From an uncultured Acidimicrobiia bacterium (lineage in GTDB: Bacteria > Actinomycetota > Acidimicrobiia > Spongiisociales > UBA5794), in NCBI GenBank assembly GCA_963753185.1, contig CAVWBO010000007.1, forward strand, positions 1,019,538 through 1,083,537: 64,000 nt of DNA, written 5' to 3'. Positions within the stretch are counted from its first letter, which is position 1. The number at the start of each line of letters is the position of its first letter. Position numbers and translations under genes: made by a program. The notes below the pieces were generated by a model that did not search any database, was not told where the DNA came from, and worked only from the letters and a program-made list of their open reading frames with translations. Positions 10,738-22,354 of this stretch are shown in pieces.

Positions 10738-11961
10738 TCAGGATCCCACGTTGACGGTCCGCTCGATGGCGGTGTAGATGTGCTCGGACATCTTCGCCTC
10801 CTCGGGATCGAGCAGGTTGGCCATCACCTTCAGCGTCCATTCCATCAGCGGCTTGTTCCGGATGCCGACCGTCGTGAGGGTCTTCATGATCGTCGGGTTC
10901 CCGATGACCCTGACGAAGACGCGTGCGACACGGTGGTAGTCGCCATAGGTTGCCTCGAGCTCTGCGTCGTAGCCCGCGAGTGCTGACGCGTCACCGGCTA
11001 CCGCATCTGCCATGTATCGGGCGGCCATGCGCCCCGTTTCGTAGGCGTAGTCGATGCCCTCGCCGTTGAAAGGGTTGACGGCGCCCGAGGCGTCCCCGAC
11101 GAGCGCCCAGTTCCGACCGACCTTCGGCCCGACGGACAGCGACATGGGGAGCTTGCCACCGATCGGACGGGTGTGGCTCGTGTCGTCGTCGATCTTCCAG
11201 TGGTCAGGTAGTTGATGGACATACGCGTCGAGGATGCTCGAGGTGTTGATGTCCTTCCATCCCTTGAACGTCGAGACGAGGCCTGCACCGACGTTGATCT
11301 CGCCGTCGCCGAGAGGGAATACCCATCCGTATCCCGGCATCGCCCTGCCCTCGGCATCGCGGATATCGAGTTGGCTCTCGATCATGCGGTCGTCCGAGTT
11401 CGGGCTCTCCCAGTACCCGCGAACGGCGAGACCGTACGGGTAGTCGCGACGTCGTGACGCACCCACGCCGCGCCCGAAGCGGGAGTTCGATCCGTCGGCG
11501 ATGATCACGAATTCGGGGTGCACGGTCCTGGTCCCGTCTGCGTTCGTGAGGGTGACCGCGGTGACCCTGTCGTTGTCGAGGACGGGCATGGCCGTGGTGC
11601 CCTGCTCGACGACGGCGCCCTGGGCTGCGGCGAGCCCGGCGACGGTGCCGTCGAGGTCGGCGCGCCGCATGGTGGCTCCCCAATTCGGGTACACGGAGTG
11701 CTCCGGCCATGCGAGTTCGATCTTCATGTCCCCCGCATAGGCGCGGAGGCCCTCGACCCTGTGGAGGTCGAGGCCGGCGAAGTCGAATCCCATGTCAAGG
11801 AGCTGCTTGATCGCCCGTGGTGTGAGGCCGTCGCCGCAGGCCTTCTCACGCGGGTAGCGCTTCTTCTCGACGAGGTGAACCTCGACGCCGTTTCGTGCCA
11901 ACCAGTAGGCGGCGGATGCCCCTCCGGGCCCACCACCGACGACGAGGACGCTTGCAGTCAT
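10738..11961 (-). CDS. Geranylgeranyl reductase family FAD-dependent oxidoreductase (MenJ-like)
   Basis: MTASVLVVGGGPGGASAAYWLARNGVEVHLVEKKRYPREKACGDGLTPRAIK is a dinucleotide-binding GxGxxG plus the GGR-family motif. Start ATG 11961 inside ORF 10738..12030. Confidence 0.85.
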   Translation of the reverse strand: MTASVLVVGGGPGGASAAYWLARNGVEVHLVEKKRYPREKACGDGLTPRAIKQLLDMGFDFAGLDLHRVEGLRAYAGDMKIELAWPEHSVYPNWGATMRRADLDGTVAGLAAAQGAVVEQGTTAMPVLDNDRVTAVTLTNADGTRTVHPEFVIIADGSNSRFGRGVGASRRRDYPYGLAVRGYWESPNSDDRMIESQLDIRDAEGRAMPGYGWVFPLGDGEINVGAGLVSTFKGWKDINTSSILDAYVHQLPDHWKIDDDTSHTRPIGGKLPMSLSVGPKVGRNWALVGDASGAVNPFNGEGIDYAYETGRMAARYMADAVAGDASALAGYDAELEATYGDYHRVARVFVRVIGNPTIMKTLTTVGIRNKPLMEWTLKVMANLLDPEEAKMSEHIYTAIERTVNVGS

Positions 11962-12075
11962 GGCGGTGAGGGTACCGGCCGGTCGGCACATCGCAGCGGC
12001 TCGGTCGAGGCACGAACGGAGCTGATACACCGATCGTGAGCGCCACGGTCACGACCGAGGATGGTGTGCCGAGCC

Positions 12076-13833
12076 CTACGGCTGGCTCGCCTCGACGGTC
12101 TCATCCTCGACTTCGACGAGACCACAGTCGATCTCGGCCTCGGTGCGGTCCTCGCCTCCGAACGCCACCCGCTCGTACAGGACGACGGCGGCGATCTGCT
12201 CGGGTGTGAGGACGCCGTCATAGCCCGGCATCAACCCGACGCCACCGACCGGCTTGTTCGTGTCACCGTACGTCGGCTCTGGGAAGTTCGCCGTGCCCAG
12301 CGTGACCCACTCAACGTGGTCGGTGCACGCCGAGAAGGTCGCCAGAACGGCGCCACCTGTGAAGGCCGGTCCCACACCTCCACCGCCGTCGGCTCCGTGG
12401 CAGGCGGCGCACTGGGCGTAGATGCCGGCGCCCATCGACAGGTAATCGACCGAAGACGACCCGTACTCGGACCCGTCGCAGTTGACGGCAAGCCCGGTCG
12501 CTGGATCGATGTTGAGTTGGCCAGCGGTGCCACAGTCAGGGCCGTTCGGGGAGACGAGGATGTAGGTAACGGCGAGCAGCGGGATGATGATGAACGCCGC
12601 CGCGAGCCACGTCGGGTACCTGCCCCTGCGCGGGGCTGCCAGTTCTTCGGTCCGATCGCCTCCGGGTTCGTCGGCCTGCACAGTTGCGGAAGCTGCGATG
12701 ACCTCCACGTCGTCCGCTGCCGTGGGCTCATCACGCTGCGCTGCGGGTTCGACCGGTGGAGAGGTCTGCACATCTGAGGATGTTGCCGACGTGCCGCCAG
12801 ATGGTGCACCGACCGTCGCCGGGTCGACGCCGGCCCATTCGGCGAGGACTGCCTCGAGGGGTTCGCCGGTCTTCTTGGCGCGTGCCTCGGCGGAGCGCTT
12901 CGCGATGGGTGCCGGCATGCCCTTTGCCTCTGCAACCTTCTCCAGGAGTTCGTCCATCGACATGGCCGCCGCCGCGGCAGGTGCTCCGGCAGACGGAGGA
13001 GTTGCCTGGGCGGTCGGTGCCTCTGGTTGCTCCGGTTGCGACGCGCCCTCAGTGGCAGCGCCCCCGACGGTCGCTGGGTCGATGCCTGCCCATTCGGCGA
13101 GGACTGCCTCGAGGGGTTCGCCGGTCTTCTTGGCGCGTGCCTCGGCGGAGCGCTTCGCGATGGGTGCCGGCATGCCCTTTGCCTCTGCAACCTTCTCGAG
13201 GAGTTCGTCCATCGACATGGCCGCCGCCGCGACTGCTGCGGGTGCGGCTGCTCGCTCGGCTGTCGGTGCCTCGGCTGGCTCTGGTTCGGCGGCATCCGCG
13301 GTTGCAGGCGTCTGCGGGGTCGTGGCGACGGGCTGGCCTGGTCTCTCTGCGACGGGGAGTTCGAGACCTGCGTCGGCCCTGGCTCGGAGATCGTCGAGGT
13401 CGACACCGGCCCACGTCGCGAGGACCGAGTCGATACTGGTTCCCGCGTTTCGGGCACGAGCATCCGCAGACGACCGCACGAGCTTCTCCGGCATGCGCTT
13501 CGACGCTGCCGCGAGCCCCACCAGATACTCCGTGGAGACCTCAGTCGGCGCACTCTGCGGCGCAGGGGTATTCGAAGGCACGGGATCGGGCGCCGCCGTC
13601 GCCGCCGGCGGGCTGTCGGCGCCCTCGTTCGGGCTATCGAGCGCCGCGGCATCCATGCCGGCGGCGGGCCCGGTGGGCTCGTCGGTGCCTTCGCCGGCGT
13701 CTTCCCCCGCCCATTCGGCGAGGACGGCCTCGAGCGAGATGCCCTCCTTGTCCGCGCGCGCCTGCGCGGAGCGCTTTGCGAGCGCGGGGGGCATGCCCAT
13801 CTTCTCTGCCGCTTTGTTGAGGAGTTCGTCCAT
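12076..13833 (-). CDS. Membrane-anchored monohaem cytochrome c with four N-terminal ~45-aa helical repeats
   Basis: C-terminus YAQCAACHGADGGGGVGPAF...GLMPGY (CxxCH plus Met ligand). One TM (YPTWLAAAFIIIPLLAVTYILV). The N-terminal 400 aa hold 4 repeats of the type MSMDELLEKVAEAKGMPAPIAKRSAEARAKKTGEPLEAVLAEWAG, separated by P/A/T-rich linkers. Confidence 0.85.
   Translation of the reverse strand: MDELLNKAAEKMGMPPALAKRSAQARADKEGISLEAVLAEWAGEDAGEGTDEPTGPAAGMDAAALDSPNEGADSPPAATAAPDPVPSNTPAPQSAPTEVSTEYLVGLAAASKRMPEKLVRSSADARARNAGTSIDSVLATWAGVDLDDLRARADAGLELPVAERPGQPVATTPQTPATADAAEPEPAEAPTAERAAAPAAVAAAAMSMDELLEKVAEAKGMPAPIAKRSAEARAKKTGEPLEAVLAEWAGIDPATVGGAATEGASQPEQPEAPTAQATPPSAGAPAAAAAMSMDELLEKVAEAKGMPAPIAKRSAEARAKKTGEPLEAVLAEWAGVDPATVGAPSGGTSATSSDVQTSPPVEPAAQRDEPTAADDVEVIAASATVQADEPGGDRTEELAAPRRGRYPTWLAAAFIIIPLLAVTYILVSPNGPDCGTAGQLNIDPATGLAVNCDGSEYGSSSVDYLSMGAGIYAQCAACHGADGGGGVGPAFTGGAVLATFSACTDHVEWVTLGTANFPEPTYGDTNKPVGGVGLMPGYDGVLTPEQIAAVVLYERVAFGGEDRTEAEIDCGLVEVEDETVEASQP
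12815..12976. repeat. Direct repeat copy A (near-identical to 13070..13231, offset 255 bp)
   Basis: cccattcggcgaggactgcctcgaggggttcgccggtcttcttggcgcgtgcctcggcggagcgcttcgcgatgggtgccggcatgccctttgcctctgcaaccttctc[c/g]aggagttcgtccatcgacatggccgccgccgcg occurs at 12834-12976 and at 13089-13231. I saw a single mismatch. Identity decays at the 5' flank. Confidence 0.9.
13070..13231. repeat. Direct repeat copy B (see 12815..12976)
   Basis: Same ~143-bp core as copy A. It encodes protein repeat 3 of the cytochrome c, and copy A encodes repeat 4. Confidence 0.9.
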
Positions 13834-13840
13834 GGTGGCC

Positions 13841-15739
13841 CTACCTCAGGGTCTCGATGTAGCTGACGAGGGCGTTGAGGTCCTCGGAGGAAAGATACGC
13901 GTACGACGGCATCGTCGACCATGGCACCACCGAGCGCGGGTTCGCGAGGTGGGCCTGGACGATGACCTTGTCGAAGAATTCGACCCTGCCGGCGTAGTGC
14001 ATGAGATCAGGGCCGAATCTCGACGTGCCGAGGAGTGCGGGGTTCTCGTTCGCGTAGTCTCCTGCGACGCTCACCGGTCCGAGCCCGACGTCACTGCCGA
14101 TGGGGCGAACCTGTTGGGTGTGGCACTCGATGCATCCTTCCGAGATGTAGAGGTCGCGGCCGATCGCCTGGGGCGAACCGGTGACATAGGTGCGGTTGGA
14201 GTCGGCGAGGATGGTCGCTTCGCGGTCGGCCCTGTCGGCGACGGGGAGCACCCACGTCATGAGGGCTGCGAAGACCCATACGCCGACGACACCCGTCACG
14301 AGCCGTCCCCACGACGCATACCGGGTCTGGCCCTCGAACTCGAGGTCGTAGTCGGTCGAATCGAATGTCACGGCGCCAGCAGGCTCACCATGTCGAGGTT
14401 TCAGGAAAGCGATCTGGCCGATGGCGAAGATCGCAATGCCGATCGCGGCGACCCAGAGGAACAACTCCGAGCTGTCTGCCGTCACCTTCCATGCATCCCC
14501 TGCGTTCACGAAACCTTGGCTCGCGGGTCCCGCCGCCCAGCTGAAGCCGACGACAACCCCGCCGACGAGGAGACCCGCCGTTGCGGCGAGCAGGCCCAGC
14601 GTCGACAGCACGAAATGGATCGACGGCCCACCGGTGCGGCCGCCGCGGAGGATCGACACCGTGGCGAAGATCGCGAATGATCCGCCACCGAGGACGATCA
14701 GGGCATCGAGGCCGTCGACCCACGGTGTGAACTGGACGACGCCGCTGGTCGCTCTCCACGCGGTGAGCAATACCACGACGGTTGCGAGCGTGAGGGCCAG
14801 GGAGGCGATCACGGCGTACCGGAGGGTCGCTCGGTCCGTGATGGAGGAGACCTTGCCCGCGATCATCAAGCCGAGGTCGGCCGCGATCGTCAGGGCCGGT
14901 ATCAGGGTCGCGATCGCGAACGCAACGGCAAGGGTCTCGTACCAATCCGGTGTGGGGGAGAAGATGAAGCGCACGGCAGCGAGATTCGCCCATACCAGGG
15001 CCAACGACCAGAAGCCGAGCGTCGACAGCGGTCGTGGAGCAGTCGGATCGGTGCCGGTGAGCGACGTGAAGGCGTGGTACAGCAACCCGACGGACGCGGT
15101 GACGAAGAACAGCCCGGTCGTGCCGGCGCTCGAGAATGCCATCTGGATGGACCCTGCGATCCCTTCGGACATCGGGACGATGGCAACGAGACCCGACAAG
15201 GCGAGCCAGATCGGAGCTGCGGTGAGATACCAGCCGGTCGCTCCGAGCGAGTCACGCCTCGTCCGGGCCGTGCCCACCACGGCGACCGCTGCCAGGAGGT
15301 AGCCGATCGCCAGGATCGCCCTGGCCCACAGGGGAGAAGCGATCCCCGCGATGCCAGAGCTCATGCCGAGCGCCACACCCACGGCGGCGCCGAGAGCTCC
15401 AACGGCGATGACCAGAAGGGAGGCGAATGCGACGAGCGAACGCACGACATCGGAACCGGTCACCCTCGACAGTGCCAAGTACGAGCAGCCGAGGAGTCCG
15501 ATCGTGAGCCACCCATCCGTCAGGAGTATGCGGGCAGCCGGGGCGAGGCGGCCATAGGTCGTGAACGCACTGCCCGAGAGCAGGTCGGGAAGCACCAGTT
15601 GCAGCGCGGCGATGGCTCCGATCACCGAGCCGAGGATGAGAAAGATCGAGGCGACGGTCACATGGGTGCGAATGACGCTCGTGCCCCGGGGAGAACCGGA
15701 TGCCTGATCCGGATGGTTCGATGCAGTTTCGGCGGTCAC
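13841..15739 (-). CDS. CcoN-like (haem-copper oxidase subunit I fold, all metal-ligand His missing) fused to an intact CcoO/FixO monohaem cytochrome c
   Basis: C-terminus GRDLYISEGCIECHTQQVRP...FGPDL...HLANPRSVVPWSTMPSY is CcoO. The N-terminal ~450 aa align with CcoN (AALQLVLPDL..YGRLAP, SPTPDWYETL), but RPLHTN, WYGHN, GPHHLHY and GHVH are replaced. Start taken at GTG 15739 (AGGAGGA 11 nt upstream) inside ORF 13841..15859. Confidence 0.8.
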   Translation of the reverse strand: MTAETASNHPDQASGSPRGTSVIRTHVTVASIFLILGSVIGAIAALQLVLPDLLSGSAFTTYGRLAPAARILLTDGWLTIGLLGCSYLALSRVTGSDVVRSLVAFASLLVIAVGALGAAVGVALGMSSGIAGIASPLWARAILAIGYLLAAVAVVGTARTRRDSLGATGWYLTAAPIWLALSGLVAIVPMSEGIAGSIQMAFSSAGTTGLFFVTASVGLLYHAFTSLTGTDPTAPRPLSTLGFWSLALVWANLAAVRFIFSPTPDWYETLAVAFAIATLIPALTIAADLGLMIAGKVSSITDRATLRYAVIASLALTLATVVVLLTAWRATSGVVQFTPWVDGLDALIVLGGGSFAIFATVSILRGGRTGGPSIHFVLSTLGLLAATAGLLVGGVVVGFSWAAGPASQGFVNAGDAWKVTADSSELFLWVAAIGIAIFAIGQIAFLKPRHGEPAGAVTFDSTDYDLEFEGQTRYASWGRLVTGVVGVWVFAALMTWVLPVADRADREATILADSNRTYVTGSPQAIGRDLYISEGCIECHTQQVRPIGSDVGLGPVSVAGDYANENPALLGTSRFGPDLMHYAGRVEFFDKVIVQAHLANPRSVVPWSTMPSYAYLSSEDLNALVSYIETLR

Positions 15740-15871
15740 GCTTTCGGCGTCCTCCTGTGCGTGCTGACAGCGCTGCCCATGGGATGGCTGGCGAAACTCT
15801 AGCCGCGGACATGCCGGCAACCCGCATCGGTTGGCGTGCACGCAGCGAAACGACCACAATCACCGGATCGG

Positions 15872-15893
15872 TTCGCCCGGTATTCGCCCGGTA
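15872..15893. promoter_or_regulatory. Tandem direct repeat TTCGCCCGGTA x2 (11-bp period) in the divergent control region
   Basis: Read directly as ggTTCGCCCGGTATTCGCCCGGTAacc. It lies between the ccoNO-like start (15739) and the start of the b6c-type operon (15961). Confidence 0.35.
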
Positions 15894-15960
15894 ACCATGA
15901 AGGTGCACCCGCGTGAGTTCTCGGGCACCGTAAACTGCCTGCACTCGGACAGGGACATAC

Positions 15961-16545
15961 GTGACCGAACGGAAGCAACTCATCGCAGGGCTGGGTCTGA
16001 TCCTGGTGGGCATCGTCGTCGCGATCGTCGGCTCCTTCCTGGTCCACACGGCCGAAGCTGATGAGTTCAACGAGTTCGGTCAGGAGATCTACGCGAACTT
16101 CCCCAGGGGTTGGGTGCCCGCCACGATCGCGCAGATGGTCGCCCTCGGTGGCGTGTTGATGGCGATGGCGGGTGCGGCCTTCGGATTCATCTACGGCCGG
16201 ACGCTCACGTGGGCGCGTGCGATGCTCGGCGCCCTCCTGTTCACCGGATTGATGTTCATCCTGTTCGCGATCATCCCGAACCAGATGCTCACGCTGTTCC
16301 AGTCGACCCTCGAGTGGACGCAGGTCAAGATCTTCGTGACGATCCCGCCGTTCCTCGTCCTCGGCAATGAGATCTCGATCTCCTACGCGGCGCTGAAGGA
16401 CATGATCGTCGCCGGGTACGTCACGACCCTCCTCATCGTGCTGCCTGTCGTCATGTACCAGTGGCAGGAGCGCGCGAAGCGCTCCGACGTGCCGAAGCCC
16501 CAACCCGTCTCGAACTACGGGCGCCCGATGCGGACGGTGGAGTGA
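15961..16545 (+). CDS. Hypothetical integral membrane protein, first gene of the Rieske/cytochrome b6 operon
   Basis: 194-aa ORF from GTG with 4-5 predicted TM helices (LIAGLGLILVGIVVAIVGSFLV, MVALGGVLMAMAGAAFGFIY, ...). Its stop overlaps the next start (TGATG). Confidence 0.7.
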   Translation: MTERKQLIAGLGLILVGIVVAIVGSFLVHTAEADEFNEFGQEIYANFPRGWVPATIAQMVALGGVLMAMAGAAFGFIYGRTLTWARAMLGALLFTGLMFILFAIIPNQMLTLFQSTLEWTQVKIFVTIPPFLVLGNEISISYAALKDMIVAGYVTTLLIVLPVVMYQWQERAKRSDVPKPQPVSNYGRPMRTVE

Positions 16546-16988
16546 TGGCCAAGGAAGCGTGGCTCGAGACGCCGCCGATGCGAGACGACTACCAGCTCGC
16601 CATCGTCGACACCTCGTATGTCCAGGCAGGTGTGAAGCCGAAGACGTTCATCCACATCAACGAGTCCGAGTGCATCCTGTGTGCCGGCTGCGTCGACATC
16701 TGTCCGTGGAAGTGCATCCACTTCCTCTCCACCGACATCATCTCCGAGACCTTCGGCGTCGACAACCCCGCGGACAAGGAAGAGAACGGCGCGATCTTCG
16801 TGATCGACGACACAGAGTGCACGCGATGCAAGCTGTGCGTCGACCGGTGCCCGACGAACGTGATCACGATCGGGAAGTTCGCAGGCTCGCTCGCCGACCA
16901 GGGCTCGCAATACGAGATGGCGCCCTGGGAGTACGACACGGGCGAACGTGACGACAAGAGCGGCGTCAGCTACGGGACGCGGTGGTGA
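16545..16988 (+). CDS. 2x[4Fe-4S] ferredoxin-type protein
   Basis: Two CxxCxxCxxxCP motifs, CILCAGCVDICP and CTRCKLCVDRCP. ATG 16545 lies inside ORF 16461..16988 and is coupled to the upstream gene. Confidence 0.85.
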   Translation: MAKEAWLETPPMRDDYQLAIVDTSYVQAGVKPKTFIHINESECILCAGCVDICPWKCIHFLSTDIISETFGVDNPADKEENGAIFVIDDTECTRCKLCVDRCPTNVITIGKFAGSLADQGSQYEMAPWEYDTGERDDKSGVSYGTRW

Positions 16989-17006: not shown

Positions 17007-17783
17007 GTGGCTGACGGTAACGGGAGGACAGGGCTCAAGGAAGCCGTGACCGGACTGGGTGACCACGTCCGGAATTCCCAGGTGTGGACGTCGATCTTCC
17101 GCCCCGGCTCGTCGATGCGGGCCGACAGTGGCGACTCGCCACGCAACCGCGCCTACGTCGTGATGAACAATGTCCTGTACCACCTGCACCCTGTGAAGGT
17201 GAAGCGCCACGGCGTCAAGCTGTCGTACACGCTGTGCCTCGGGGGACTGAGCTTCTTCCTCTTCATCCTCCTCACGATCACGGGCATCTTCCTGATGTTC
17301 TATTACCGGCCGACGTCACCCCAGGCCTACTTCGACCTCCAGGCGCTCGCAACGGACGTGGCGTTCGGCCAACTCGTGCGCAACATGCACCGGTGGGGTG
17401 CCCACGTCATGGTGCTCACCGTCTTCCTCCACATGTCACGGGTGTTCTATCACGGCGCGTACAAGCCGCCCCGTGAGTTCAACTGGGTCGTCGGCATCAT
17501 CCTGCTCCTCCTCACGCTGCTCCTCTCGTTCACCGGCTACCTCCTCCCATGGGACCAGCTGGCACTGTGGGCGGTGACGGTCGGGGGGAACATGGCCGCG
17601 TACACGCCGGTGTTCGGTGAACAGGTGACATTCGCACTCGTGGGCGGTGTCCAGATCACCGCGGACACCTTGTTGCGGTTCTATGTTCTCCACGTGTTGT
17701 TCCTCCCCTTCATCATCACGATCTTCATGGCCGTGCACTTCTGGCGAGTCCGCAAGGACGGCGGAATCTCGGGACCCCTCTAA
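17007..17783 (+). CDS. Cytochrome b6-type protein (N-terminal half of split cytochrome b, 4 TM)
   Basis: LSYTLCLGG (compare FYCLGG, the haem ci Cys of cyt b6). Also [55 protein letters not shown]. The C-terminus [10 protein letters not shown] is as in cyanobacterial PetB. Confidence 0.9.
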
Positions 17784-17792
17784 GGAGCTGGC

Positions 17793-18692
17793 GTGGCAGA
17801 GCTACCAGAACATCTGAAACGCAGGGCGGCCGAGGCGAGGGCGAAGGCCGCGGGCATCACCGTCGAGGAGGCGATGGCCGCCATGGACGGCGAGAGCGCC
17901 CCCGCTCCTGCGGCTTCAACACCCGCCCCACCATCCCCGGAAGGCTCCGGAGGCGAGCGCGATCTCGATGCCGAGTCCGCCCGCTACGGGGTACCGCGAC
18001 CACTGCTCCAGCGCGCCATGATGGCAAGGGCAAAGGCCGATGGAACCGGCGTACCCGCCCTTGTCGGGGCCGGAGCACCTGCAGCCACCGCACAGGCCTC
18101 GACCTCGTCGCCTGCCCAGGGGTCGGGGACGACCAGCCGGGCCGCATCGCCGCCTGCTCCACAGGGCCCGCCGCCGGGCGTCCGCACGCAACGGCTGCTC
18201 ACGGTCGTCAAAGCCGGCGCCATCCAGGGCACGACGAAGGAACCCGCGGACAAGGTCAATGTTTGGCCGCACCTCCTCGCCATCGAGTTCGTGGCACTGC
18301 TCGGAATGCTTGCCTTCCTGACGCTTCTCTCGGCGTTCGTCGACGCGCCCCTCCTCGAGTTCGCGAACTTCAACCAGCAGCCGAACCCTTCGAAGGCGCC
18401 GTGGTACTTCCTCGGCCTCCAGGAGCTGCTCGCGTACTTCGACCCGATGGTCGCGGGCGTCATCGTGCCGGGCTTCGGCCTCGCAGCTTTGGCGTTCATC
18501 CCGTACATCGACCGCAACCCGTCGGTGAGGCCCTCGGATCGCAAGCTCGCAATCTCGATCTACACGGTGTTCTTCATGGCGGCGGCGATCCTGACGATCT
18601 TCGGATCCTTCTTCCGGGGTCCCGGATTCAACTTCACGTTCCCGTGGCGCGACGGCATATTCTTCGACGACCTACTGACGATCCTCGAATGA
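17793..18692 (+). CDS. Cytochrome b C-terminal half (subunit IV/PetD-like) with ~150-aa N-terminal extension
   Basis: The core is VWPHLLAIEFVALLG...NPSKAPWYFLGLQELL (PEWY-type motif)...IPYIDRNP. The N-terminal extension has two copies of the ARAKA-type motif (LKRRAAEARAKAAGITVEEAMAAM; LLQRAMMARAKADGTGVPAL). Confidence 0.85.
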   Translation: MAELPEHLKRRAAEARAKAAGITVEEAMAAMDGESAPAPAASTPAPPSPEGSGGERDLDAESARYGVPRPLLQRAMMARAKADGTGVPALVGAGAPAATAQASTSSPAQGSGTTSRAASPPAPQGPPPGVRTQRLLTVVKAGAIQGTTKEPADKVNVWPHLLAIEFVALLGMLAFLTLLSAFVDAPLLEFANFNQQPNPSKAPWYFLGLQELLAYFDPMVAGVIVPGFGLAALAFIPYIDRNPSVRPSDRKLAISIYTVFFMAAAILTIFGSFFRGPGFNFTFPWRDGIFFDDLLTILE

Positions 18693-19555
18693 CCGGCGCA
18701 CTCCTCTTCGCTTCGCTCCTCATCCTCGTGACGCTCGCTGCTGCGTTCGCGATCGTCACGATCGCGGCGAGGCGATCGGATTCCGACGGTGCGGTGACCG
18801 CCGCCGAGCTCGATCGGCGCGCCGCCAAGGCGGATCGGGACCGGAGGAAGGCCATGGCAGCCGCAGCCGCGGCCGGTGCTGCCGACGAGGGAGAAGGGTC
18901 ATCCGTTGCCACGCTCGTCGCTGCGCCCCTCGAGTTCCAGGAGGACCCTCCTCGCACGGAGATCTCGGCGACGGAGTACGGCGTCACTCGCCGCAAGTTC
19001 TTCAACAGGGCGATCGGTGCCGTCTTCGGGCTGTTCATGCTCCAGTTCGCCCTCGCGGGGCTCGCGTTCTTCTGGCCGAAGCTCAAGGGCGGATTCGGCA
19101 CGCCGATCAAGGCCGGGTCGGTCGAGTCGTTGAAGGCCGAGATCATCAACGGTGCGACGATCATCCCGAAGTTCGTGCCCGCGGCCCAATCGTGGGTCGT
19201 CCCCTTCGACATGTCCAAGCTCGCGGGGTCCTCCTTCGAGGCGACGCCGTTCGTCGTGGCTGGGGGCGAAGCCGATGGGGTCGGACTGATGGCCCTCTGG
19301 CAGAAGTGTGTCCATCTCGGCTGCCGGGTTCCCGAATGCCTTTCATCGCAGGGATTCGAATGCCCGTGCCACGGATCGAAGTACAACCAGCACGGCGAGT
19401 ACAACTCCGGACCCGCGCCACGGAACCTCGACCGCTTCTCGGTCAGCGTGGATGCTGCCGGGGAGCTCGTCATCGATACGGGTGTCGTCGTCCAGACCTC
19501 ACGGGCGAAGGTGCTGACGATCGCGTACCCGCAGGGTCCGTTCTGTGTGGGGTGA
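18689..19555 (+). CDS. Rieske [2Fe-2S] iron-sulfur subunit
   Basis: CVHLGCRV...CPCHGSKYNQHGEYNSGPAPRNLDRF are the Rieske boxes. Twin-arginine-like TRRKFFNRAIGA. ATG 18689 overlaps the upstream stop (ATGA) and lies inside ORF 18263..19555. Confidence 0.9.
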   Translation: MTGALLFASLLILVTLAAAFAIVTIAARRSDSDGAVTAAELDRRAAKADRDRRKAMAAAAAAGAADEGEGSSVATLVAAPLEFQEDPPRTEISATEYGVTRRKFFNRAIGAVFGLFMLQFALAGLAFFWPKLKGGFGTPIKAGSVESLKAEIINGATIIPKFVPAAQSWVVPFDMSKLAGSSFEATPFVVAGGEADGVGLMALWQKCVHLGCRVPECLSSQGFECPCHGSKYNQHGEYNSGPAPRNLDRFSVSVDAAGELVIDTGVVVQTSRAKVLTIAYPQGPFCVG

Positions 19556-21170
19556 TGGACTCGTGAAGACACTCTCGATGATCAGCGCCGTCGCGGAGGA
19601 GACCGAGGTCGTCGACTCCTCCGTCGGGCTCGGCATCGGTGCCATTGCGCTCCTCATCGCGGTGAGTCTCATCCTGGGATGGATGGGCTTCTTGTATGTC
19701 AATTCGCGTCGCTCCCGTGCCTCGTCAGGTGAGGCGATTCCCCCGAACCTGTCACCCCATGCAACGGACGACGAGCTCGAGAACACCAAGCTCACGAAGG
19801 TCCTTCGTGCCGCCCTGTTCGGATCTGCGCTCCTGGCCGTCTCACTGCCGTGGTACGCGTTCAACGAACCGGACCGCCAGGCCGAGGCCGCCGTCGCGAT
19901 CGAGGAGCTCGACGTCGAGGAGGGCGCGCATTGGTTCAGCGTCGACGGCTTCCAGTGTTCCAACTGCCACGGCCCGGCAGCCGGTGGCGGAGCAGCGGCT
20001 TTCGTCGAGGCCCGAAGCGGAGTCTCGGTTTCGTGGACCGCCCCGTCACTCGACGACGTGCTGTATCGATATGACGAGGAGGAGGTCGCGTACTGGATCA
20101 TCTATGGGCGTGCGAATTCCCCGATGCCCGCCCTCGGCCTCGACGGTGGTGGCGCCATGACCGTCCAGGAGATCGACCAGACGATCGCCTGGCTCGACTC
20201 CATCCAGGTGAGCCAGGCCGATGCGTTCGCTCGCTCAGGTCCTGCCGCGGACCAGGCGCTCGCCCGCATCGACGGTGGCGAGGCATTCACGCAGAACCTG
20301 ATCGCCCGCCAGGAGGCCGAGATCGCCGATGTCGAGGCTGCCGAGGGGAGGGTTGCCGTCGTCGGAGGCTTCCCGGAGGACATCAAGGATCTCTTCCAGG
20401 CGCCGGCAACGTGCACACCCGCATCCGCAGCCCTCGTTGGTGCCTCGTGCACCGATCCAGGGGTCGACAGCGACCGCGACGGGTTGTCGGACGCGACCGA
20501 ACGCGCCCTGACCGTGATGGCGGGAGTTTCGAAGGACACGATCAGGGTGGTCACGGTGGACTCGTCGGTGGTGCCGAACGTCTACACGAACCAGCCGAAC
20601 ACGCTCTACGACGTCCGGTTCGATCCGTTCGTCGCCTTCACCAATACATCGGACGCCGGCCCCCTTGCCGATCTGGACGCCGCGGAGGAGCTGCTCGGCC
20701 ATCTCGAGACGGATGTGTTGCTCCTCACCGTCACAGCCGAGCGCATGGACGCCTTCCTCGCCGACCTCGAGCCCGGCCTTGCCTTCCTCGAGAGAGCCCT
20801 CGCCGAGAAGCCGTGGGCGGTCGACTTCGATGCTGTCGCTGCAGACATGGGGGTCGCCGTTGAGGACGCGCAGCTCGCAGTCGGGCTCTTCAATGCCTAC
20901 TGCGCCAGGTGCCACACGGGCGGATACAGCGCCGGACCTTCGTTCGAACAGGGGGCGGGATCGGGAGCGTGGGGACCGGCGCTTGCGGATGGCCGTTCGC
21001 TGGTCCAGTTCCCCGACCCTGCCGATCAGATCGCGTTCATCATCTCGGGATCCGACAACGCCGTCGGGTACGGCGTCAACGGGATCGGGTCCGGTCGGAT
21101 GCCGGGCTTTGGAAGTGTCCTGTCCCAGGAACAGATCGAGCTGATCGTCAGGTATGAGAGGTCGATGTGA
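19545..21170 (+). CDS. Membrane-anchored dihaem cytochrome c with large inter-haem insert
   Basis: Two CxxCH motifs, FQCSNCHGP and AYCARCHTGG, each followed by a Met-containing segment (NSPMPALG, GSGRMPGFG). N-terminal TM GLGIGAIALLIAVSLILGWMGFLYV. The start may be GTG 19545 or GTG 19563. Confidence 0.85.
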   Translation: MWGDGLVKTLSMISAVAEETEVVDSSVGLGIGAIALLIAVSLILGWMGFLYVNSRRSRASSGEAIPPNLSPHATDDELENTKLTKVLRAALFGSALLAVSLPWYAFNEPDRQAEAAVAIEELDVEEGAHWFSVDGFQCSNCHGPAAGGGAAAFVEARSGVSVSWTAPSLDDVLYRYDEEEVAYWIIYGRANSPMPALGLDGGGAMTVQEIDQTIAWLDSIQVSQADAFARSGPAADQALARIDGGEAFTQNLIARQEAEIADVEAAEGRVAVVGGFPEDIKDLFQAPATCTPASAALVGASCTDPGVDSDRDGLSDATERALTVMAGVSKDTIRVVTVDSSVVPNVYTNQPNTLYDVRFDPFVAFTNTSDAGPLADLDAAEELLGHLETDVLLLTVTAERMDAFLADLEPGLAFLERALAEKPWAVDFDAVAADMGVAVEDAQLAVGLFNAYCARCHTGGYSAGPSFEQGAGSGAWGPALADGRSLVQFPDPADQIAFIISGSDNAVGYGVNGIGSGRMPGFGSVLSQEQIELIVRYERSM

Positions 21171-21715: not shown

Positions 21716-22354
21716 CTACGAATCTCCCGTGGGGCGTGCGATGCTCAGGTGGTGGGCGAGGATCCCGAGTTCGGTCGATAGGTCGACGCGACGCACCGAG
21801 ACGTCCTCGGGGACCTTCAGGATGATCGGTGCCAGGTTGAGGATCGACTTGACGCCGGAAGCAATGAGTCGGTCCGCCGCCGACTGGGCCGCACCAGGGG
21901 GAGTCGCGATGATCCCGATCTCGACGCCCCCCGACGTCACGATGTCCTCGAGCCTGTGGATCGACTCGACGACGAGGCCGTTGAGCCTCGTTCCGATCTT
22001 CGACTCGTCCACATCCAGGATTCCGACGATCGTGAATCCCCAGTTGGCGAAGCCCTTGTAGTTGCTGAGCGCGGAGCCGAGGTTCCCTGCCCCGATGATC
22101 ACCACAGGGTGGCTGCGTGTCATGCCGAGCACCACGCGTATTTGGGCCATGAGCTGATCGATCTCGTAGCCGACGCCCCGCGTTCCGTGGCTCCCCACAT
22201 AGGAGAGATCCTTGCGCACCTGCGCAGCAGTGCACCCCGAAACGGACGCCAACTGCTCCGATGAGCACTGGTGCGTCGTCGAGGCCATGTCCGAGAGGCA
22301 CCGAAGGTACCTTGGCAACCTCGCGACCGTCGCTGACGGGATCGTCGACTTCAT
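21716..22354 (-). CDS. rex: Redox-sensing transcriptional repressor Rex
   Basis: IPSATVARLPRYLRCL...SSEQLA...AAQVRKDLSYVG..GTRGVGYEI is the winged helix. VVIIGAGNLGSAL is the Rossmann motif. Divergent from nuoA. Confidence 0.9.
   Translation of the reverse strand: MKSTIPSATVARLPRYLRCLSDMASTTHQCSSEQLASVSGCTAAQVRKDLSYVGSHGTRGVGYEIDQLMAQIRVVLGMTRSHPVVIIGAGNLGSALSNYKGFANWGFTIVGILDVDESKIGTRLNGLVVESIHRLEDIVTSGGVEIGIIATPPGAAQSAADRLIASGVKSILNLAPIILKVPEDVSVRRVDLSTELGILAHHLSIARPTGDS

Follow-up and report, generated by a model that had tools for sequence, protein, structure and literature searches.

Members of the haem-copper oxidase superfamily have a haem/CuB site as their defining feature. In the cbb3 oxidase of P. 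stutzeri (3MK7/5DJQ) subunit I (CcoN) is a protein of 12 transmembrane (TM) helices, which is encoded together with CcoO, a membrane-anchored monohaem cytochrome c with a CxxCH motif and an axial Met, and with the cytochrome c subunit CcoP. Subunits I and II can also be fused into one polypeptide of 13 TM helices, and these fusions retain most or all of the binding sites; for the single-polypeptide cbb3 of Nitrospina gracilis the replacement of one residue (Trp203) next to the CuB site was reported as unprecedented (PMC3578206). In the bc1-cbb3 supercomplexes (R. capsulatus 6XKW; P. aeruginosa 8SMR, 9G83) a cbb3 module stands beside a Rieske/cytochrome b complex with bridging c-haems. Here we describe a fused ccoN-ccoO-like gene (CcoNO-like gene) in a 64-kb stretch of DNA from an uncultured Acidimicrobiia bacterium (contig CAVWBO010000007.1; the whole stretch is referred to as the window). 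The gene lies beside a Rieske/cytochrome b6 (b6c) gene cluster and resembles all of these systems, yet nothing of the haem/CuB site is left in it, which raises the question of what role a 12-helix shell without cofactors can have.

The gene is a single open reading frame (ORF), as stated in the first-pass annotation of this DNA. It is intact, has 632 codons and lies on the minus strand (13841..15739), with a GTG start and its stop at 13841-13843 in a window of ~65 % G+C. The sequence AGGAGG can be read 8 nt upstream of the GTG at 15739, and all homologues begin at this N-terminus (MTAET.SN). A longer ORF with a TTG start, extending to 15859, is therefore not supported as the gene.

Both halves of the protein are recognized by Pfam. 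The COX1 family (PF00115) matches residues 23-434 with 56.5 bits (cut-off 34.8) and the FixO family (PF02433) residues 525-623 with 80.8 bits (cut-off 29.6). The curated NCBIfam models score far under their cut-offs, with 117.7 bits against 1080 for the best of them, PRK14485 (fused cbb3 subunit I/II), 61.4 bits against 583 for the ccoN equivalog TIGR00780, and 80.7 bits against 200.65 for TIGR00781, the FixO profile being covered at ~50-147 only. The motifs FGRL.P and PDW are shared with cbb3 subunits. As judged from its sequence the protein is thus clearly homologous to cbb3 subunits and as clearly no ordinary member of that family.

When a profile of the family was compared with the PDB, it matched CcoN (3mk7_A, E=1.6e-24) and CcoO (E~1e-22). 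NorB of the nitric oxide reductase cNOR is homologous in fold, and NorC resembles CcoO, but the match to NorB is far weaker (4xyd_A, E=9.6e-5) and NorB retains its haem and FeB ligands; an ancestry in nitric oxide reductases instead of cbb3 oxidases was rejected on these values. In an AlphaFold2 model of the 632-aa protein (mean predicted local distance difference test score 79.5, predicted template modelling score 0.86) the 12 helices are followed by a 13th (residues 477-501) and then by a small domain that is likewise helical. Foldseek superposed it on cbb3 CcoN over ~450 columns with a target-normalised template modelling score of 0.82 and a root-mean-square deviation of 3.2 Å, and the bc1-cbb3 supercomplexes 6xkw, 8smr and 9g83 were among the best fold matches. 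The Pfam match, the profile match to 3mk7_A and this superposition, which the first-pass annotation had proposed, together identify a 12-TM COX1 fold with sequence homology to CcoN.

The register of the metal-binding residues was taken from phmmer alignments of the protein to three solved CcoN chains (9g83_t, 8smr_E and 3mk7_A), which are mutually consistent. Residues of CcoN are numbered as in P. stutzeri, with H207, H257 and H258 as the CuB ligands cited in PMC3578206. Alanine occupies both positions of the bis-His ligation of the low-spin haem b (H60 is replaced by A69 and H347 by A346), the haem b3 ligand H345 is replaced by L344, and the CuB ligands H207, H257 and H258 are replaced by A205, V256 and R257, respectively. 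The Tyr of the His-Tyr cross-link (Y251) is W250 here.

A profile (A1) was also built from 38 family members, and the 150 top-ranking representatives obtained by searching 1.84 billion proteins were put through hmmalign. On this profile genuine CcoN, as positive control, reads H-H-Y-H-H and then H-H at the H345 and H347 columns, and the window protein reads A-A-W-V-R and then L-A at the same columns. A MAFFT L-INS-i alignment made independently, in which six true CcoN sequences were included, showed the same losses. Histidines hidden by misalignment, a doubt left by the first-pass alignment, which was made by eye, can thus be rejected from the HMMER, profile and MAFFT alignments with their true-CcoN controls, and the original description of a CcoN-CcoO fusion without any haem or CuB histidine in its subunit I part holds. 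For the TM7 block that description was right about the loss of the histidines and one residue out in register: GPHHLHY pairs with AAVRFIF and not with AVRFIFS, which leaves the conclusion unchanged.

The His-less state is a property of the family, being kept in 81 genome-derived and 68 metagenome-derived homologues. His is absent from the H60 column throughout, where A, G or S is found, and the H207 column has A or S. The H345 column has L, V, A, F or G, and the H347 column has His in one of 149 sequences (P0126, in the profile A1 alignment only). All six ligand columns lack His in the 81 genome-derived sequences, save for one sequence each at columns 256 and 257; P0005 and P0010 read AVH at column 257. 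At the column of the cross-link Tyr, 49 of the 54 metagenome homologues that cover it have W.

Only five His are found in the 470 residues of the N-terminal domain, and H375 alone is conserved. Its counterpart in P. stutzeri CcoN, H384, stands where TM11 begins on the cytoplasmic side and is no metal ligand. H243, Y317 and E323 of CcoN, which we take to be residues of the cbb3 proton pathway, align with G242, L316 and V322 in phmmer. These alignments show that none of the three cofactors, haem b, haem b3 and CuB, can be bound by the N-terminal domain in the known manner, and given this loss of ligands the reduction of O2 or NO by the CcoN-like domain is predicted to be absent. The small and aliphatic residues at the old ligand sites fit with helices that pack over empty haem pockets.

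The C-terminal part has fared differently. Residues 524-622 align with solved CcoO chains (E ~1e-19), including the CxxCH motif (C536, C539 and H540) and M610 within NPR..VP.S.MPSY. As in CcoO, a TM anchor (TM13, residues 477-501) thus precedes the cytochrome c domain that carries the CxxCH and the axial Met. The first-pass annotation had called this an intact CcoO, and this is right for the haem core (C536/C539/H540 and M610) but not for the subunit as a whole; FixO profile positions ~51-147 of 219 are present, and the C-terminal third of CcoO is missing. The CxxCH and Met are retained in 75 of the 77 genome-derived sequences that reach them and likewise in those of the 68 metagenome-derived sequences that reach them. 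Judged by these residues the c-haem site is intact.

The family is widespread among uncultured Acidimicrobiia. One genome per GTDB species was scanned, and homologues with 31–89 % identity were found in about 165 species-level genomes; the best 80 of these 165 were used for the analysis of loci. Almost all of the 80 are metagenome-assembled genomes (MAGs) of uncultured Acidimicrobiia, and no cultured host was found among them or among the named cluster members. More than 120 full-length homologues (37-88 % identity) were obtained in a word-indexed search. At three MAG loci (L071, L076 and L079) the CcoNO-like gene is broken over two reading frames, where assembly or sequencing errors are suspected.

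Measured against the two closest relatives (dS ~0.5), the His-less domain has a ratio of nonsynonymous to synonymous substitution rates (dN/dS) of 0.11-0.13 and the haem c part one of 0.11-0.12, and both parts are under purifying selection. The N-terminal domain has thus lost all cofactor residues and nevertheless persists across the phylogeny under purifying selection, as expected of a pseudoenzyme. That the gene might be decaying, a possibility raised in the first-pass annotation, finds no support here: the probability that it is a pseudogene or an annotation artefact is negligible and the idea was rejected, since an intact ORF with a Shine-Dalgarno sequence, the low dN/dS and conservation in about 165 species genomes and in metagenomes outweigh the scores far under the curated cbb3 cut-offs and the suspected assembly errors behind the three frame changes.

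A large clade that is kept by selection and has the fold but none of the ligands would, as far as we know, be the first clear case of a pseudo-oxidase among the haem-copper oxidases. In the open-access full-text literature we found no other case of a cofactor-less relic in this superfamily, and no description of a ligand-less CcoN, of a ligand-less CcoN-CcoO fusion (none was known to the first-pass annotation either) or of the Acidimicrobiia b6c cluster.

From the family alignment and the AlphaFold2 helices, most residues that are invariant in the family fall at one or other of the two predicted membrane surfaces, away from the mid-membrane positions of the cofactors. The predicted cytoplasmic face carries the conserved charged residues D231, D288, D302, R303, R307 and H375, and Y221, E268, D288, S332, H375 and Q442 are invariant polar residues in or near the helices. 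The alignment contains no conserved Cys, Met or Lys at mid-membrane positions.

The gene order around the CcoNO-like gene resembles that of cbb3 operons (N-O-P). A gene for a membrane-anchored cytochrome c begins 7 nt past the stop codon and occupies the ccoP position; unlike CcoP of cbb3 oxidases, its product is monohaem and carries cytoplasmic repeats. On the other side the b6c cluster starts divergently at 15961, and both the operon with the repeat-bearing cytochrome c and the divergent cluster are as first noted. This nine-gene layout is identical in the best 80 genome loci wherever the flank suffices. In a reciprocal scan, metagenomes were searched with an alignment (A3) of memA, the first gene of the b6c cluster, and loci with at least 700 nt upstream were counted. 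A divergent CcoNO-like gene was found upstream of memA in 62 of 62 such loci, usually 170-340 nt away. The genomic linkage with the Rieske/cytochrome b6 complex is thus conserved in genome and metagenome loci and in both directions, and the CcoNO-like gene is inseparable from the b6c cluster.

The two divergent operons also share a sequence motif. A motif of ~45 aa (...IAKRSAEARAKKTG..LE.VLAEWAG) occurs four times in the N-terminal, cytoplasmic half (residues 1-338) of the partner cytochrome c, where the last two copies are identical. When a hidden Markov model of the motif was run against the 589 ORFs of the window, one further match was obtained, in subunit IV of the b6c cluster (two weak copies at residues ~4-90, E=5.9e-6). 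Among the best 80 related loci the motif was found in the partner cytochrome c in 71 and in subunit IV in 58, and in almost nothing else among 10,759 ORFs. It has no match in Pfam or the PDB. The partner cytochrome c and subunit IV, encoded in two divergent operons, therefore carry one dedicated cytoplasmic module. Together with the two-way synteny this shared motif strengthens the putative link of the CcoNO-like protein to the b6c complex, a partnership that the first-pass annotation had suggested from gene position.

Ligand-less CcoN-like proteins were also found in other arrangements. One locus (L081, 10001-12889; P0170) has the same b6c cluster with separate genes for a ligand-less CcoN-like protein of 485 aa, a CcoO-like protein of 179 aa and a cytochrome c of 298 aa. 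It follows that the module goes back to a two-gene ccoNO and that the fusion seen in the window is secondary. In another locus (L046) a COX2-COX1-COX3 gene set with a COX1 match of 441 bits lies a few genes downstream; relatives therefore own a real A-type oxidase.

In a sister lineage (L089, 5020-7104 and 7246-9022) a ligand-less CcoN-like protein, which has one His in 480 residues, carries a cupredoxin fused to its C-terminus, and its gene lies directly upstream of COX2 (with a cytochrome c domain) and a genuine A-type COX1. Genes for ResB/CcsA cytochrome c biogenesis and a ferredoxin are found upstream in the same locus.

Three further loci (L083 and L084, 10001-12076; L170, 9001-12025) have genes for a ligand-less CcoN-like protein, a CcoO-like protein and a cytochrome c on the same strand after genes of alternative complex III (ACIII), with the CcoN-like gene either fused to or followed by the CcoO-like gene. 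The ACIII operon is complete in L170 (multihaem protein, ActB-like, NrfD/ActC, ActD, cytochrome c and ActF-like), and L083 has NrfD/ActD and the genes that follow. The neighbours of these ACIII-linked loci suggest Verrucomicrobiota or Planctomycetota, and one member of cluster P0184 is annotated as Verrucomicrobiota. In L087 (8309-10886) a stand-alone pair of ligand-less CcoN-like and CcoO-like genes adjoins a complex I operon and is divergent from genes for an FHA/flavoprotein, a polyferredoxin with a cyclic nucleotide-binding domain and an MtrC-like multihaem protein; no b6c or ACIII cluster is found within 9 kb of it.

The nearest fusions that still bear the ligands (P0164 and P0166) are encoded in plain operons of ccoNO and a cytochrome c. 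About three quarters of the 114 top representatives with a full N-terminal domain lack at least four of the ligands, in a sample that is biased towards the query, and the neighbour-joining tree of the representatives, made from the equally biased top 150 hits, is too crude to count independent ligand losses.

With somewhat better than even confidence, we read the CcoNO-like protein as a dead-oxidase scaffold with a c-haem relay that is attached to the b6c complex. The CcoN-derived 12-helix domain would be a C-family haem-copper oxidase without catalytic activity that serves as a scaffold or docking platform in the membrane, and the fused CcoO-derived domain would still place one c-haem, ligated by His and Met, at the outer face. 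As an accessory module, the protein and the CcoP-like cytochrome c are most likely a permanent part of the Rieske/cytochrome b6 complex of Acidimicrobiia. The CcoO and CcoP-like haems would take electrons from the dihaem cytochrome c of the b6c complex and hand them to an acceptor, either a true terminal oxidase of the aa3 type or some other. The A-type oxidase of L046 and the CcoN-cupredoxin fusion upstream of COX2-COX1 in L089 are consistent with such a relay.

The module probably originated from an ancestral b6c-cbb3 supercomplex in which oxidase chemistry was lost and a structural or relay role retained. By analogy, the solved bc1-cbb3 supercomplexes, in which cbb3 is docked on complex III, make such an ancestral assembly plausible. 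Unlike the situation in the window, their cbb3 is active and their genes are not found in one divergent cluster; here the physical association, as well as the direction of electron flow and the scaffold role, is what we infer from the genes. Cofactor-less relics are found elsewhere in respiratory complexes, with NuoG of complex I and ActB of ACIII being molybdopterin-fold subunits free of Mo. As in these two, a catalytic fold that has lost its cofactor may here serve a larger complex as a structural element or in electron transfer.

Several points weigh against a scaffold and relay on the b6c complex. Expression of the CcoNO-like protein, attachment of its haem and its association with the b6c complex are predicted from the genes, and the true terminal oxidase of the organism is assumed from its relatives. 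No genuine oxidase was found among the large ORFs scanned in the 64-kb window, and ten ORFs sampled across 23.9-58.4 kb are mostly complex I subunits. The b6c cluster already has a dihaem cytochrome c, so that an extra relay is not obviously needed, and a membrane domain of 430 residues is a costly anchor for one haem. The charged residues D231, D288, D302, R303, R307 and H375 at the cytoplasmic face also hint at a role beyond that of a passive scaffold.

The protein could instead be a free-standing membrane-anchored cytochrome c, a shuttle like cytochrome cy, with the dead CcoN as a mere anchor and the gene linkage reflecting co-regulation. The conserved c-haem site fits with this, as does the divergent promoter layout, which permits co-regulation, and a monoderm actinobacterium has no soluble periplasmic pool of cytochrome c. 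One TM helix would, however, be enough for an anchor, yet all 12 are selected as strongly as the haem domain. The clustering of conserved residues at both predicted membrane surfaces and the motif shared with subunit IV, which points to physical coupling, also argue against a free-standing protein, and we regard it as rather unlikely.

Also unlikely, in our view, is a regulatory or sensory pseudo-oxidase, along the lines of the redox sensor named in the first-pass annotation, in which the c-haem would read the redox state of the cytochrome c pool and the 12-TM domain would signal to the cytoplasmic face, modulating the b6c complex through, for example, the ferredoxin subunit or the repeat-bearing tails. 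The cluster of charged residues at the cytoplasmic face with the invariant H375, the cytoplasmic repeat modules on the partner proteins and the Rex-like regulator conserved beside the cluster would suit a sensor. The protein is, on the other hand, without an output domain, a Rex-type operator was not found in the divergent region, and the varied periplasmic domains on dead CcoN elsewhere (haem c and cupredoxin) fit better with electron transfer.

The old cavities or proton pathway of the CcoN-like domain might also have been repurposed as a channel or transporter for ions or protons, or as a site for quinone or lipid. The domain is large and conserved, and the invariant Y221, E268, D288, S332, H375 and Q442 would provide polar groups in or near the helices. 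Nevertheless, the positions that we assume to belong to the proton pathway are now G, L and V, the small and aliphatic residues at the ligand positions suggest collapsed cavities, and there is no similarity to transporter families in Pfam or NCBIfam, which makes this role improbable.

Some pseudoenzymes prove to have migrated catalytic residues, a general point made in PMC10211241, and on that precedent the domain could still be an oxidoreductase with a haem or metal held by non-His ligands at new positions. We consider this very improbable, given that the only conserved one of the five His in the N-terminal domain aligns with a His that is no ligand and stands where TM11 meets the cytoplasm, that the alignment has no conserved mid-membrane Cys, Met or Lys, and that a sister lineage manages with one His in 480 residues.

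The gene is the marker of a so far undescribed respiratory module in Acidimicrobiia, in which a b6c-type complex III would be combined with a ferredoxin subunit, two new membrane subunits and a cbb3 relic. More tentatively, and with distinctly less than even confidence, ligand-less C-family modules could be an unrecognised and widespread class in respiratory chains, with a dead CcoN and a haem c or cupredoxin domain fixed on unrelated quinol:cytochrome c oxidoreductases. Examples would be the Rieske/b6 complex in Acidimicrobiia and the ACIII operons with Planctomycetota- or Verrucomicrobiota-like neighbours. Dead CcoN modules may provide a physical connection between complex III-type enzymes and aa3 oxidases, or add a new coupling function, and their presence in ACIII operons or upstream of aa3 genes suggests a general principle of supercomplex evolution.

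There is also a practical consequence for annotation. The NCBI and JGI pipelines label the family as 'cbb3-type cytochrome c oxidase subunit I', 'II' or 'I/II', and cbb3 oxidases have been reported in Actinobacteriota MAGs (PMC8357290). If such calls rest on the CcoNO-like gene, the high-affinity microoxic respiration inferred for Acidimicrobiia is unfounded. With all six His, the cross-link Tyr and the presumed proton-pathway positions replaced, and with scores under the curated NCBIfam thresholds, the window protein should not be filed as a cbb3 oxidase.

Table 1. Positions in the window of the CcoNO-like gene, its parts and the genes of the two divergent operons.
Feature	Position	Strand	Remark
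CcoNO-like gene: ligand-less CcoN-like domain and CcoO-like monohaem cytochrome c, 632 aa	13841..15739	-	
CcoN-like 12-TM domain, aa 19-446	14402..15685	-	
Cytoplasmic linker, aa 447-476, and TM13, aa 477-501; counterpart of the CcoO N-terminal membrane anchor	14237..14401	-	AlphaFold2 secondary structure; alignment to 8smr_F from residue 27
CcoO/FixO-type haem c core, aa 523-632	13844..14173	-	CxxCH C536-H540 at nt 14120-14134; axial Met610 at nt 13910-13912
Partner cytochrome c, membrane-anchored, monohaem	12076..13833	-	Four cytoplasmic ~45-aa repeats, one TM helix, C-terminal Cytochrome_CBB3-type haem domain
Divergent intergenic region between the two operons	15740..15960		Typically 170-340 nt in relatives
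memA, conserved membrane protein of 194 aa	15961..16545	+	First gene of b6c cluster
2x[4Fe-4S] ferredoxin-like subunit	16545..16988	+	Start inferred at ATG overlapping memA stop
Cytochrome b6 (split cytochrome b, N-terminal part)	17007..17783	+	
Subunit IV (cytochrome b C-terminal part)	17793..18692	+	N-terminal extension with two weak copies of the 45-aa motif
Rieske 2Fe-2S subunit	18689..19555	+	Start inferred; listed ORF begins upstream at 18263
Dihaem cytochrome c of b6c cluster	19545..21170	+	
memB, conserved membrane protein of 167 aa	21167..21670	+	Last gene of b6c cluster

The b6c cluster itself has some unusual members. MemA and MemB match no family in Pfam or NCBIfam, and the two are probably new subunits of the b6c complex; the dN/dS of memA is 0.035. 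The ferredoxin-like gene between memA and cytochrome b6 is kept in nearly all loci and encodes an unusual iron-sulfur subunit for a Rieske/b6 complex, which is presumably cytoplasmic. Cytochrome b6 scores above the cut-off of the NCBIfam 'ExtP' equivalog (302.9 against 290).

In many loci the cluster is part of a wider block with the order nuo operon – Rex – b6c cluster <> CcoNO-like – cytochrome c – geranylgeranyl-reductase-family flavoprotein – SAM_HAT – PPK2, where <> marks the divergent region. A gene for a Rex-like redox-sensing repressor (21716..22354, minus strand) directly follows the b6c cluster and is kept in 48 loci. No Rex-type operator was found at 15740-15960, and the six weak matches in the whole window compare with 9.7 expected. 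Immediately after the partner cytochrome c comes the gene for the geranylgeranyl-reductase-family flavoprotein (10738..12030, minus strand), which keeps this place in 56 loci; the flavoprotein may act on the menaquinone side chain. The window also contains two complex-I-type gene sets on the plus strand, one at ~49.6-58.4 kb with NuoK/L/M/N-like antiporter subunits and one at ~22.5-37.2 kb with NuoD/F/G/L-like subunits, the latter being syntenic with the b6c cluster in many relatives.

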